Assembly (NCBI GenBank): GCA_009838735.1
Contig: VXQZ01000033.1
Coordinates: 50,826-114,825, forward strand
Direction of reading: 5' to 3'
DNA: 64,000 bases
Source: Chloroflexota bacterium
Lineage (GTDB): Bacteria > Chloroflexota > Dehalococcoidia > Bin125
Positions within the stretch are counted from its first letter, which is position 1; the number at the start of each line of letters is the position of its first letter. The translations under genes were made by a program, and so were the position numbers. The notes below the pieces were generated by a model, which worked only from the letters and a program-made list of their open reading frames with translations, had not been told where the DNA came from and did not search any database. Shown one piece after another: positions 38,925-46,405 of this stretch.

Positions 38925-39626
38925 TCAGTCGGCCACTGTTCCACCGAATGGGCTATCGGGCGGCTCTTCCGGTTCGTCTTCCTTCTCGGCGATCGGTGCA
39001 CGCTGCTCGATCGCGCGCATCGCTCGCCAGGTGATGAACCAGCGCTGCAGTGCCGTGAGGTTGGTGAGCACGGCGAGCAGCCAGAGCATCGGCACGATCT
39101 GCGATGAGAGCAACCCAATCGCCACGATCAGGACGCGCTCGAGTCGGGTTCCCAGCCCGGTGCGGATGCTGACGCCGAACTCGCCCGCCTTGGAGCGGGT
39201 GTAACTGACCATCATGCTGCCGAACAGAGAAACGGCAATCAGGACGATTGCCGTGCGATCGAAGCGCTCGGCGGCGCTGTACCAGATCAGCAGTCCGAAG
39301 AGGATTGCGAAGTCGGCGAAGCGGTCGGAGACGGCATCGAAGACGGCGCCCCAGTCGGAAGCTCGACCGGTGGCGCGGGCGACGGCGCCGTCGAGCAGAT
39401 CGAACAGCGCGGCGGCGAGCATGACGATCCCCGCCTGCCAGAACTTGCCATAGGCCACCAGCGTGGCCGCGCCGGCCATGCCGAGCAGGCCAATCAGGGT
39501 GAGCGCGTTTGGTGTGAGACCGGTGCGAGCAACGGCCCGTCCGAGCCGCTCCGAAACCTCAGTTGATATCGAGTGGGGAAGGAGAGACACGCAGTTTCCG
39601 AGTGAACTCGCCCGCAGTGGATTCAC
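38925..39626 (-). CDS. CDP-alcohol phosphatidyltransferase family protein (PI/PGP-synthase-like)
   Basis: D-x2-DG-x2-AR ... G ... D-x3-D motif (FDLLDGAVARATG...DAVSDRFAD); multiple TM helices. Confidence 0.85.
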   Translation of the reverse strand: MNPLRASSLGNCVSLLPHSISTEVSERLGRAVARTGLTPNALTLIGLLGMAGAATLVAYGKFWQAGIVMLAAALFDLLDGAVARATGRASDWGAVFDAVSDRFADFAILFGLLIWYSAAERFDRTAIVLIAVSLFGSMMVSYTRSKAGEFGVSIRTGLGTRLERVLIVAIGLLSSQIVPMLWLLAVLTNLTALQRWFITWRAMRAIEQRAPIAEKEDEPEEPPDSPFGGTVAD

Positions 39627-39655
39627 TCTACACAGCGAGCAGAGCTTGACCGGAG

Positions 39656-40564
39656 TTAGTCGTAAAACATTCGCTTGCCGACAAAGAAGAGAAGGAATGC
39701 GACGGGGATCGCCGCGGCGATCATGATGACGTGATTGAGGTTGAGCTGATCATAGAAGGGCTTGTCCTGGGATTCGATGTACGGCCAGTTGAGGAGCAGT
39801 GCGCGCTCGGCGTTGTCGGTGAATTTGGAAATGAGCTCGTCTTCGGGAATGCCGCAGATCTCCTCGACAGCGTCATAGAAGGGCACGCCTTCGCCCACGG
39901 CTCGAAAGAGATCGGCAAGCGCATCAGGGCCCCAGTCCTGAAGGAGCCAGGCGAGCATGCCGCCGGCCTGTCCGAAGTACTTGGCCTGGAATTGCCCGGT
40001 GGTAGGGACGACCTCGAGTTGCTCTGTTGTGTAGAACTCCTCGTAGTCGAGATAGAGGACGGAACCGGCGCGTCGGAGGAAGAAGCCGGGCAGCGGTCCC
40101 TGGGACCACAAGCCGAGCGCGGCGCGCATCCAGACGGGGACCTCAGTGGCATATTGCCTGGTGGCGGCGTTGATCAGCGCGTTGGTGACGGCATTGCGGA
40201 CGTCGCCGGATGTGCTGCGCAGCACGTTCACGGGAGGGATCTCGGCTGTGACTCCGTCTGGAAGCTGTTCGGGGTCTGACGGGTCGGCGCCCGGCGGCCA
40301 GACGACGATGGTCAGGGAAGCGGATATCTCGGTGTCGATGAGTTCGCTGACCAGGTCGTAGGCTCCCTGGGCATGGTCGGCCAGGTCGTCGGCGCGTTCT
40401 TGGCCCTGTGAATGCCAGAGCGTCAGGTCGCCTCGTTTGGCCGATGACCATTGGCGCTCCTCGTCCTGGGCGCCGATCGAGGTGAACGAACAGGCCAACC
40501 AACCGGCACAGAAGGCTACCAAGAGGAGCACGTGAGACCGTCGGGGTACGCGAGACCGGGTCAC
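39656..40564 (-). CDS. Secreted/membrane-anchored peptidase_MA-like protein lacking HExxH (paralogue of 49982-51502)
   Basis: Signal peptide, C-terminal TM; central region aligns by eye with the HExxH peptidase downstream (WLLQDWGPDALADLFRAV vs VLYLLGEYGNEKMNELFATF). Confidence 0.5.
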   Translation of the reverse strand: MTRSRVPRRSHVLLLVAFCAGWLACSFTSIGAQDEERQWSSAKRGDLTLWHSQGQERADDLADHAQGAYDLVSELIDTEISASLTIVVWPPGADPSDPEQLPDGVTAEIPPVNVLRSTSGDVRNAVTNALINAATRQYATEVPVWMRAALGLWSQGPLPGFFLRRAGSVLYLDYEEFYTTEQLEVVPTTGQFQAKYFGQAGGMLAWLLQDWGPDALADLFRAVGEGVPFYDAVEEICGIPEDELISKFTDNAERALLLNWPYIESQDKPFYDQLNLNHVIMIAAAIPVAFLLFFVGKRMFYD

Positions 40565-40573
40565 GGGGCCAGA

Positions 40574-44241: not shown

Positions 44242-44249
44242 CCGGAAGG

Positions 44250-45353
44250 CTACTCGCCGTGGGCGAAGGCTTCGACGGAGTCACGGGCGACATCGTCGGT
44301 CCATTGTTCGGGGGGCGATTTCATGAAGTAGGCGGAGGGCGCGAGCAAGGGGCCGGCCAGGCCGCGGTCGAGTCCGAGCTTGGCGCAGCGGACGGCGTCG
44401 ATCACCACGCCGGCCGAGTTGGGCGAGTCCCAGACTTCCAGTTTGAGCTCGAGGTTGAGCGGGACGTCGCCGAAGGTTGTGCCCTCGATCCTGATATGGC
44501 ACCACTTGCGGTCTTCAAGCCAGGGCACGTGGTCGGAGGGACCGACGTGCACGTCGCCGGAGGGCATCTCGTACTCGATCTGGGAAGTGACCGCGTTGGT
44601 CTTGCTGATCTTCTTGGATTCGAGGCGTTCTCGTTCGAGCATGTTGTAGAAGTCGGTGTTGCCGCCGAAGTTGAGCTGATAGGTGCGGTCAATCTGGACG
44701 CCGCGATCGCGGAACAGGCGCGAGAGCACGCGGTGCACGATGGTCGCGCCGACCTGAGACTTGATGTCGTCGCCGATGATCGGTGCGCCGGCGCGGCGGA
44801 ACCGGTTGGCCCAGTATTCCTCGCGGGCGATGAACACCGGGATGCAGTTGACGAATCCGCAGCCTGCTTCGAGCACCTGCTCGACGTACCACTTGGTCGC
44901 CTCTTCGGAGCCGACCGGCAGATAGTTGATGACCACATCGACATCGCGATCCTTGAGGATCTGCGCGACGTCGACCGTCGAACCGGGCGCCTTTTCGATG
45001 ACCTCCGAGAGGTACTTGCCAAGGCCATCATGGGTCATTCCCCGTTCGACGGGCACGCCGAGGTCGGGAACATCGGTGAATTTCACGGTGTTGTTGGGTT
45101 CGGCGAAGATGGCCTGTGACAGGTCGAGGCCGACCTTGCGCGAATCGATGTCGAAGGCGGCCACGAAGTTGAGATCGGAAATCGAATAGCCGCCCATCAC
45201 GGCATGCATGATTCCCGGGATTTCGTCGCCGTCCTGTGCGTTCTGATAGTGGGTCACGCCCTGGACGAGGGAGGAGGCGCAATTGCCCACCCCGATGATC
45301 GCCACATTGATTTTTCCTGTTGGGGCATTATTGGCTTTCGCGTCGTCTGACAT
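44250..45353 (-). CDS. ino1: myo-Inositol-1-phosphate synthase
   Basis: 367 aa from the internal ATG with AAGGAA RBS; NAD-binding [18 protein letters not shown]. Confidence 0.9.
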
Positions 45354-45595
45354 GGAGAGTTCCTTCCGCGGATGGTGCGGTCGATGAGGATTGCCGAGCA
45401 AATTCGGAATCTCGCCGTGAGACGACCGCCCCGGATCACTCAGATGTCACCTGCGAGTACTTCAATCTACCAGCCGCATTTGTGATCCGCAGTCATTGAA
45501 GACATAGATGGAACGGCCGAATCGGTCGAAGATTGGGCGGTCTGGGCGGATCAGCCGCGGGCTCAGGGCATGGCGGCACGCGGTAGGCTGAGGCA

Positions 45596-46405
45596 ATGCC
45601 CGACCCTCGCGAGATGATGGCGGAGATGTATCTGCAGTTTGCAGGGGAGTTGGCGGATGCCGCGGGCGAAGCGATTCGGCCGTGGTTTCGGGCCGAGATG
45701 CAGGTTGACCGCAAGAGCGACGGCTCACCGGTTACTCAGGCCGACCGAGCCGCCGAAACCGCGATCCGAGAACGGATCGCCGACCAGTTTCCACTGCACG
45801 GCGTGATTGGCGAAGAGTACGGGAGCGAGGGCTCGGATTCCGAGTGGGTCTGGGTCGTTGATCCGATTGACGGCACCGGTGCGTTTGTGTCGGGATTGCC
45901 GACATTCGGCACGCTCATCGCCCTGGTTCACGATGGCAAACCCCTGCTGGGCGTACTTGACCAACCGATATTGAACGAGCGCTGGTCGGGAGTGCACTAC
46001 CCGGGAGTGACACGACGAACTACACACAATTCACACCTTGTCCACACGTCCTCCACGATCGAACTGGAAGCCTCGATCGGCTTCGCCACGACGCCGGAGA
46101 TGTTCACGGGCGCCGACCACACGGCGTGGCAAGCGTTGTCGTCCTCGTTCGAGCGAATTCGCTATGGGGCTGACTGCTATGCGTACGGCCTGCTGGCCTC
46201 CGGGTTTGTGGACATTGTGTGCGAAGCCTCGTTGAAGTCGTGGGACTACCTGGCGCTGGCCCCGATTGTGGAAGGGGCAGGTGGTCGGATGACGGACTGG
46301 GAGGGTGCGGAGCTGACCACCGGGTCAGGTGACAGAGTCGTGGCTGCGGCGAGTGCGCGTCTGCATCAGGCTGCTGTGGAACGACTGATGTGTGCGGATC
46401 GTTAA
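45596..46405 (+). CDS. Inositol monophosphatase family protein
   Basis: WVVDPIDGT metal-binding motif; 269 aa. Confidence 0.85.
   Translation: MPDPREMMAEMYLQFAGELADAAGEAIRPWFRAEMQVDRKSDGSPVTQADRAAETAIRERIADQFPLHGVIGEEYGSEGSDSEWVWVVDPIDGTGAFVSGLPTFGTLIALVHDGKPLLGVLDQPILNERWSGVHYPGVTRRTTHNSHLVHTSSTIELEASIGFATTPEMFTGADHTAWQALSSSFERIRYGADCYAYGLLASGFVDIVCEASLKSWDYLALAPIVEGAGGRMTDWEGAELTTGSGDRVVAAASARLHQAAVERLMCADR

Follow-up and report, generated by a model that had tools for sequence, protein, structure and literature searches.

Glycolipids of the phosphatidylinositol mannoside (PIM) type count as a hallmark of actinobacteria, and those of mycobacteria bind host receptors as potent ligands. The locus described here raises the question of whether a bacterium of another phylum, the Chloroflexota, encodes chemistry of the same kind. 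It lies in a 64,000-nucleotide stretch of contig VXQZ01000033.1 (hereafter ‘the window’, to which coordinates refer unless a locus is named), where seven closely packed genes run in the same direction on the minus strand (38925-45401) and one further gene diverges from them on the plus strand. All eight open reading frames (ORFs) named in a first-pass annotation of this DNA are present at their annotated positions, and match the families proposed for them (ORF listing, Pfam and NCBIfam scans). The same annotation had recognised in these genes the actinobacterial logic of ino1, phosphatidylinositol (PI) synthase, PimA and PatA, and this is supported by the model scores and pocket residues of the phosphatidyltransferase, by a full-length match to PimA, and by two acyltransferases of the LPLAT type that are closest to PatA. 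Judged on sequence, the cluster very probably makes PI together with glycosylated and acylated PI.

Two sets of related loci serve for comparison. The first, ‘lineage 1’, comprises 42 species-level Dehalococcoidia loci, searched by tblastn with the window proteins, whose PHP-family phosphoesterases (PHPs) are 54-98% identical to that of the window. The second, ‘lineage 2’, was reached via a homologue (P0099) whose PHP is 41% identical, and comprises 80 loci from soil, sediment and freshwater metagenomes plus two genome bins labelled Chloroflexota (L047 and L049); its PHPs share about 37-40% identity with those of lineage 1.

The last gene of the minus-strand run (38925-39626; Pfam CDP-OH_P_transf) encodes a CDP-alcohol phosphatidyltransferase, and the first-pass annotation had staked its proposal on whether this protein falls among the PgsA enzymes or the phosphatidylinositol phosphate (PIP) synthases (PIPS). 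The PgsA reading fails. Of the NCBIfam models, PIPSynth scores best (128 bits, against an equivalog cut-off of 170), followed by AIPS (122), pssA (38) and pgsA (26), and the protein looks, from its sequence, like a member of a clade of its own, intermediate between bacterial PIPS and archaeal AIPS. The closest solved structure in a search of the PDB is Mycobacterium tuberculosis PgsA1 (6h5a, 3e-27), and alignment to it shows the signature D(x)2DG(x)2AR...G(x)3D(x)3D to be fully kept, with D76, D79, G80, A83, R84, G93, D97 and D101 corresponding to D68, D71, G72, A75, R76, G85, D89 and D93 of the mycobacterial enzyme. Taking residue roles from the published work on PgsA1 (PMC6506517), the residues of the inositol-phosphate pocket (R94, S132, Y133, R152, R155 and R195) are identical, and K135 and R137 are conservatively changed, to Arg and Lys respectively. 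We assign the protein as a predicted PIP synthase, not PgsA. Were it instead a PgsA-type phosphatidylglycerophosphate (PGP) synthase, with the PHP as PGP phosphatase and phosphatidylglycerol as the product, then the automatic name of one JGI homologue (‘CDP-diacylglycerol--glycerol-3-phosphate 3-phosphatidyltransferase’) would be apt; against this stand the pgsA score, set beside those for PIPSynth and AIPS, the retained inositol-phosphate pocket and the co-inheritance of the gene with INO1 in both lineages, and we hold this alternative to be extremely improbable. A synthase for the osmolyte di-myo-inositol phosphate (DIP; IPCT/DIPPS) was likewise set aside, as the match reaches only 80 bits and neither a cytidylyltransferase domain nor a gene for one was found.

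Inositol phosphate for a PIP synthase would come from the first gene of the run, INO1 (44250-45401, minus strand), which encodes a myo-inositol-3-phosphate synthase (MIPS) recognised by Pfam Inos-1-P_synth at 128 bits (gathering cut-off 27) and is 85-99% identical across the lineage-1 loci. Its score of 550 bits against NCBIfam TIGR03450 is below the cut-off of 638, and it is therefore not the actinobacterial mycothiol-type equivalog. The gene divergent from INO1 (45596-46405, plus strand) had been counted as an inositol monophosphatase (IMPase) belonging to the cluster; it does exist and is of the Pfam Inositol_P family, but its membership does not hold up. It reaches 290.8 bits with the HisN model TIGR02067, above the trusted cut-off of 275.15, and 80 bits with the inositol-1-monophosphatase model, for which the cut-off is 332; most likely it encodes a histidinol-phosphatase, HisN, and is a neighbour rather than a core member. 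It sits beside INO1 in 35 of the 42 lineage-1 loci, and no IMPase-family match was found in any lineage-2 locus. An IMPase would in any case be dispensable, because the PIP-synthase route takes inositol phosphate directly (PMC9246714); we have thus rejected this gene as a member of the pathway.

The product of the PIP synthase, once dephosphorylated, would be the acceptor for a glycosyltransferase of family GT4 (40574-41623, minus strand; Pfam Glycos_transf_1 and Glyco_transf_4). Its best match in the PDB is PimA (4n9w/2gej, 1e-38, 136 bits), and the alignment covers residues 8-346, including the acceptor-binding N-domain; the runner-up scores 76 bits. The segments PGGVQTH, GRDEPRKG and GGEALGLVLIESMAAG align with PGGV, GRxDxxKG and EX7E, which we take to be the nucleotide-sugar motifs of PimA. 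An NCBIfam scan of this protein returned no PimA equivalog match. The lineage-2 orthologue lies closer still to PimA (3e-59, 204 bits, against 82 for MshA). These comparisons bear on a further alternative, in which the GT4 and the PHP would form a glycosyl-inositol-phosphate synthase/phosphatase pair (MshA/MshA2-like, or for a compatible solute) making a soluble glycosyl-inositol, with the lipid genes as mere neighbours. Pairs of a GT4 with a phosphatase are a common design, the window GT4 has weak similarity to MshA (67 bits with TIGR03449, 55 bits with 3c48), and lone PHP-GT4 pairs exist in two other loci (L080 and L082, described below); PimA is nevertheless far ahead of MshA in both lineages, and a PIP synthase and two PatA-like acyltransferases are co-inherited with the pair in each, which leaves the soluble product very unlikely.

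The two acyltransferases that favour a lipid product are LPLAT-A (43323-44183, minus strand) and LPLAT-B (42378-43310, minus strand), which match Pfam PF03279 (Lip_A_acyltrans) at 62 and 122 bits respectively. For both, the best NCBIfam model is NF005919, a PIM acyltransferase (66 and 121 bits; the cut-off of 209 is unmet in each case), and the closest structure in the PDB is PatA (5f2t, 4e-8, for LPLAT-A; 3e-11 for LPLAT-B). With respect to the PatA catalytic pair His126/Glu200, each keeps the His (within HFGNWD in LPLAT-A and HISNPE in LPLAT-B) and an acidic residue, Glu200 being replaced by Asp. We describe both, on sequence similarity, as PatA-like rather than as confirmed PatA orthologues; like the phosphatidyltransferase and the GT4, they are diverged members of their families and not close orthologues of the actinobacterial enzymes.

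How far the genes belong together can be judged from their inheritance. Homologues of the window PHP and PIPS at 80-98% identity come from metagenome-assembled genomes (MAGs) labelled Chloroflexota/Dehalococcoidia, several with sponge-style bin names (SB0665, IRC, RHO); the host is a sponge-associated member of the Dehalococcoidia (Chloroflexota), not an actinobacterium. Across lineage 1, LPLAT-B is adjacent to the PHP gene in 42/42 loci, the GT4 gene is present in 39/42, PIPS and LPLAT-A in 37/42 each, and INO1 in 35/42, with missing genes accounted for mostly by contig ends; the module stays intact despite inversion of its surroundings. Within lineage 2, the GT4 lies directly downstream of the PHP in 63 of 65 loci and an LPLAT upstream of it in at least 42 of 48, while INO1 and PIPS were found in every locus with sufficient upstream sequence (16/16 and 14/14, respectively). 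All 12 of the fully flanked loci have the order PIPS-INO1-LPLAT-LPLAT-PHP-GT4, which places PIPS at the opposite end of the operon from its position in the window, and for one lineage-2 locus NCBIfam and PDB comparisons identify a PIPS/AIPS-type transferase, two PatA-like LPLATs, a PHP and a PimA-matching GT4. Since the gene set is linked in the 42 Dehalococcoidia loci and the 80 lineage-2 metagenome loci, its co-location is far beyond chance; and the co-inheritance of six families at ~37% PHP identity, in a different gene order, argues for PIPS, INO1, the two LPLATs, the PHP and the PimA-like GT4 being a functional unit.

Some loci depart from this picture. In two Dehalococcoidia loci (L036 and L037) LPLAT-B lies 0.8-2.6 kb from the PHP, with no GT4, PIPS, INO1 or LPLAT-A within 10 kb, such that the cluster is here either split or partly lost. 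Lineage 1 also has two insertion hot spots, at the LPLAT-A/LPLAT-B junction (19/37 loci) and the PHP/GT4 junction (19/39 loci), where 0.5-4 kb of additional DNA carries N6_N4 DNA methylase, Hypoth_Ymh, McrBC, PLDc_2 and unclassified ORFs (in L008, L019, L028, L088, L089 and others). We considered the inserted genes as extra pathway enzymes and rejected the idea on these identities; they are selfish or restriction/defence cargo, splitting the operon in about half of the species.

Lineage 2 has an addition of its own, in the form of a convergent gene immediately downstream of the PimA-like gene that encodes a PMT-family GT-C protein of 801 to ~1700 amino acids (Pfam-confirmed in L122 at 11960-17077, L049 at 3875-8392 and L087 at 2413-4818, all minus strand); a large convergent ORF occupies the same position in L047 (3050-8344, minus strand). 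PMT-family enzymes are polyprenyl-phosphate-mannose-dependent mannosyltransferases, and this protein could serve either to extend the PI-glycoside on the outer face of the membrane or to O-mannosylate proteins. Unlike lineage 2, the window has no GT-C/PMT gene among its large ORFs that were scanned.

The most revealing member of the unit is the PHP-family metal-dependent phosphoesterase (253 amino acids; 41620-42381, minus strand; Pfam PHP_C 41.7 bits, PHP 25.8 bits). The first-pass annotation had simply listed it; it is confirmed as present, and goes further in proving to be a core member in both lineages. An AlphaFold2 model (pLDDT 90.4) has the PHP barrel, and Foldseek relates it with a probability of 1.0 to PHP structures, the best matches being RNase AM, TM0559 and BVU_3505, although identity is no more than 17-23% and TM-scores lie between 0.5 and 0.64. 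Of the nine metal ligands, eight (D12, H16, H46, E73, H80, H114, D181 and H183) do not vary among 160 sequences. Three positions, P120, L131 and P154, set the cluster-linked PHPs apart from the unlinked ones, as does a C-terminal extension, Arg-rich and amphipathic (hydrophobic moment ~0.6, net charge +6), that is confined to the linked proteins and is what an enzyme acting at an anionic membrane surface would be expected to carry. The PHP is the sole hydrolase in the conserved six-gene set, in which each other step has exactly one gene, and no PgpA, PAP2 or HAD domain was matched by Pfam or NCBIfam in any cluster protein. Because the PIPS route needs a step from PIP to PI, and the PHP is the only hydrolase at hand, it becomes the candidate for that step; on sequence and context we put its being a phosphatase for PIP (or for glycosyl-PIP) at somewhat better than an even chance.

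Synthesising these findings, we propose that the operon encodes the whole of the following route. INO1 would convert glucose-6-phosphate to inositol-3-phosphate, which the PIP synthase would join with CDP-diacylglycerol to give phosphatidylinositol-3-phosphate; the PHP, anchored to the membrane through its amphipathic, positively charged C-terminal helix, would then remove the phosphate to leave PI. The PimA-like GT4 would transfer a hexose, probably mannose from GDP-mannose, onto the inositol of PI, and the two PatA-like acyltransferases would attach one or two more acyl chains (by mycobacterial analogy, at O-6 of the sugar and O-3 of the inositol), such that the end product would be an acylated glycoside of PI in the manner of AcPIM1 or Ac2PIM1. 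What the sequences show directly are the enzyme families, the retained catalytic residues, the close packing of the genes and the joint inheritance of the six in two lineages; within the scheme we infer the substrate of the PHP, the identity of the sugar, the positions of acylation, and the order of dephosphorylation and glycosylation. The acyl groups of mycobacterial PIMs are found on mannose O-6 and inositol O-3 (PMC3229680), and since the phosphatase would free O-3, an inositol-directed second acyltransferase is the natural reading; that one of the LPLAT paralogues has this role is, nonetheless, a speculative suggestion by analogy. To our knowledge, no enzyme has been identified for the mycobacterial inositol-O-3 acylation (the Ac2PIM step). 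Taken as a whole, the route from glucose-6-phosphate to an acylated PI glycoside, with the PHP as PIP phosphatase, appears likely from the genes at hand.

Several points weigh against this interpretation. At position 14 of the PHP, where the HxH metal motif has its first His, 40 of 45 lineage-1 proteins carry Gln, that of the window included (lineage 2 has His). We know of no PHP-family enzyme that acts on a lipid, and the characterised enzymes closest to the window PHP are RNase AM and nucleoside-bisphosphate phosphatases. PHPs of ~37-39% identity occur in Dormibacterota and other genomes with no linkage to PI genes (homologues in L003/L004, L085, L086 and most of L050-L084 are unlinked in this way), and a neighbour-joining tree does not resolve the linked PHPs as one clade, giving three clean but equidistant clades (a trichotomy). 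The scores of PIPS, the PatA-like proteins and MIPS all fall under the NCBIfam equivalog cut-offs; the donor sugar and acceptor of the GT4 are not readable from its sequence; and the lipid products of this uncultured lineage are predicted from genes alone. The cluster also has a single glycosyltransferase, and PIM2 and higher species are therefore not predicted.

Those concerning the PHP lead to an alternative that leaves the lipids in place, namely that the cluster makes PI/PIM-like lipids while the PHP is an accessory hydrolase, with PIP left to a Pgp-type enzyme encoded elsewhere or to the neighbouring IMPase-family protein; the PHP might then clear a nucleotide or by-product, as is thought for the mycobacterial Nudix protein Rv2609c. 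The action of the closest characterised PHPs on nucleotides and RNA would fit such a role, as would the frequent position of the IMPase-family gene beside INO1 and the existence both of related PHPs away from PI genes and of PHP-GT4 pairs with no PIPS. Set against this, the IMPase-family protein passes the HisN cut-off and its gene is absent from all lineage-2 loci, whereas the PHP is always present; neither version of the cluster contains a Pgp, HAD or PAP2 gene; and the linked PHPs bear their specific cationic amphipathic tail. We consider an accessory PHP to be unlikely, though worth keeping in mind, and retain the PIP phosphatase as the preferred assignment.

The PHP-GT4 pairs with no PIPS, LPLAT or INO1 are found in L080 (10001-11841), an Actinomycetes MAG, and L082 (9986-11862), a Dormibacterota MAG, where they adjoin an alpha/beta hydrolase or a VTT/DedA gene. 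They may represent a different glycosyl-phosphate synthase/phosphatase pairing.

Among known systems the closest is the actinobacterial pgsA1-patA-pimA operon, which in mycobacteria and corynebacteria runs Rv2612c (pgsA1), Rv2611c (patA), Rv2610c (pimA) and Rv2609c for the early PIM steps, with ino1 unlinked (PMC3229680). As there, the window links PIP synthase, PatA-type and PimA-type families in one operon, with catalytic residues conserved; it differs in phylum and gene order, in having INO1 within the operon, a pair of PatA paralogues where the mycobacterial operon has one, and a PHP phosphoesterase, and in lacking the HIT and Nudix genes, and the window has no PimB' or later mannosyltransferase. 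A second relation is to BT_1522-BT_1526 of Bacteroides thetaiotaomicron, which encodes MIPS, PIPS, the PgpA-like PIP phosphatase BT_1525 and an inositol phosphoceramide synthase (PMC9246714). Both clusters bring together MIPS, PIPS and a dedicated phosphatase (a predicted role here) to reach PI via a PIP intermediate; the Bacteroides phosphatase is PgpA-like and its pathway continues to inositol phosphoceramide, whereas the hydrolase of the window is of the PHP family and is followed by PimA/PatA-type glycosylation and acylation. BT_1525 is the lone known bacterial PIP phosphatase (PMC9246714), and as of July 2026 the mycobacterial enzyme was still described as ‘as-yet unidentified’, EphE having been put forward as a candidate (bioRxiv 10.64898/2026.07.15.738315). 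In view of the missing PgpA domain, the window PHP, if it does dephosphorylate PIP, would be a non-homologous replacement for the BT_1525 type. Compared with TrpH/YciV (RNase AM, a 3',5'-nucleoside bisphosphate phosphatase) and the CehA/McbA PHPs, it shares the fold and the metal ligands bar the first His, and differs in having Gln at that position, an Arg-rich tail and a setting of lipid synthesis rather than nucleotide metabolism.

In the open-access literature we found no paper that deals with PIMs or PimA from Chloroflexi/Dehalococcoidia and none that describes a PIP phosphatase of the PHP type, and we regard the cluster as a known pathway in altered form with one potentially new enzyme function. 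The fullest version of the proposal is that the PHP is a new, non-homologous PIP phosphatase and the first lipid phosphatase of the PHP superfamily, acting in a PIM-type pathway that occurs widely among Chloroflexota (marine sponge symbionts, soil and freshwater lineages), with the second PatA paralogue as the inositol-O-3 acyltransferase; this we see as evenly balanced. The conserved six-gene PIM-like module would carry this chemistry into a second phylum, with abundant sponge symbionts among its members, whose surface glycolipids could then bear on host recognition. Cultured Chloroflexota are known to have PI among their major lipids (PMC12453558), and the module would account both for this and for phosphoglycolipids reported as unidentified from cultured members. 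The PHP offers a concrete, testable candidate for the PIP phosphatase step, and the LPLAT pair a candidate for the second PIM acyltransferase.

The seventh gene of the run, lying between the GT4 and PIPS genes (39656-40564, minus strand), had been noted beforehand as an odd, degenerate peptidase-like member, and this description is apt. It scores 18.3 bits with Pfam Peptidase_MA_2, below the cut-off of 32.4, and the HExxH zinc motif is gone in 29/29 of its orthologues. An intact paralogue lies in the same window (BLASTP E 3e-12 between the two), with HELTH aligned to NAVTN in the degenerate protein; both have the same layout, an N-terminal signal/transmembrane (TM) segment and a C-terminal TM anchor. 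The dead paralogue is present in 29 of the 42 lineage-1 loci, all in the nearer subclade; neither the deeper Dehalococcoidia loci nor lineage 2 have it. By sequence and distribution it is a conserved pseudo-enzyme, inserted into the operon in one subclade and outside its core. The intact Peptidase_MA_2 gene (49982-51502, plus strand) adjoins prfB in the window and in related genomes; its product is a 98-bit match, keeps HELTH and has, besides the signal peptide and the C-terminal TM anchor, a long stretch of low complexity that is acidic.

Some gene boundaries can be refined. The PHP ORF spans 41620-42471; its true start is, by sequence comparison, best placed at M31, giving the gene coordinates above, because PHP homologues measure 250-254 amino acids. 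The ATG so chosen overlaps the LPLAT-B stop as ATGA, and the PHP stop overlaps a TTG (as TTGA) at the start of the GT4 ORF; for the GT4 itself a GTG at 41596 is the likelier start, yielding MRIQHVLPYD, which aligns with the N-terminus of PimA. INO1 probably begins at an ATG at 45353, and PIPS may begin about 36 nucleotides downstream of 39626. The intergenic gaps of the seven-gene run, from -4 to 66 bp, look like those of an operon. A consensus promoter and terminator scan of the cluster gave no signal exceeding shuffled expectation, and Rfam and tRNA scans gave no match inside it.

The remaining genes of the window are housekeeping ones (mfd, fusA, recJ, fabF, prfB, folD, acs), and the region is chromosomal core DNA, not an island. 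Genes for a luciferase-like monooxygenase (LLM) and a Thioredoxin_9 protein (36833-38856) flank the PIPS end in essentially all lineage-1 loci, at 71-99% identity; this is conserved chromosomal synteny, with no evident link to the pathway. Further out, a phosphotriesterase-family gene (PTE, 276 bits) abuts a 547-amino-acid ORF without a Pfam match (34839-36482), the two together spanning 33885-36482 on the plus strand. Between 20 and 22 kb there is a sharp compositional anomaly (GC skew -0.26, AT skew +0.14) containing solely family-less ORFs, among them one for a helix-turn-helix-like protein (21249-21965), and a 21-bp tandem repeat (20651-20694). The cumulative GC skew of the window reaches its minimum near 24000-26000, falling turning to rising near 25 kb.

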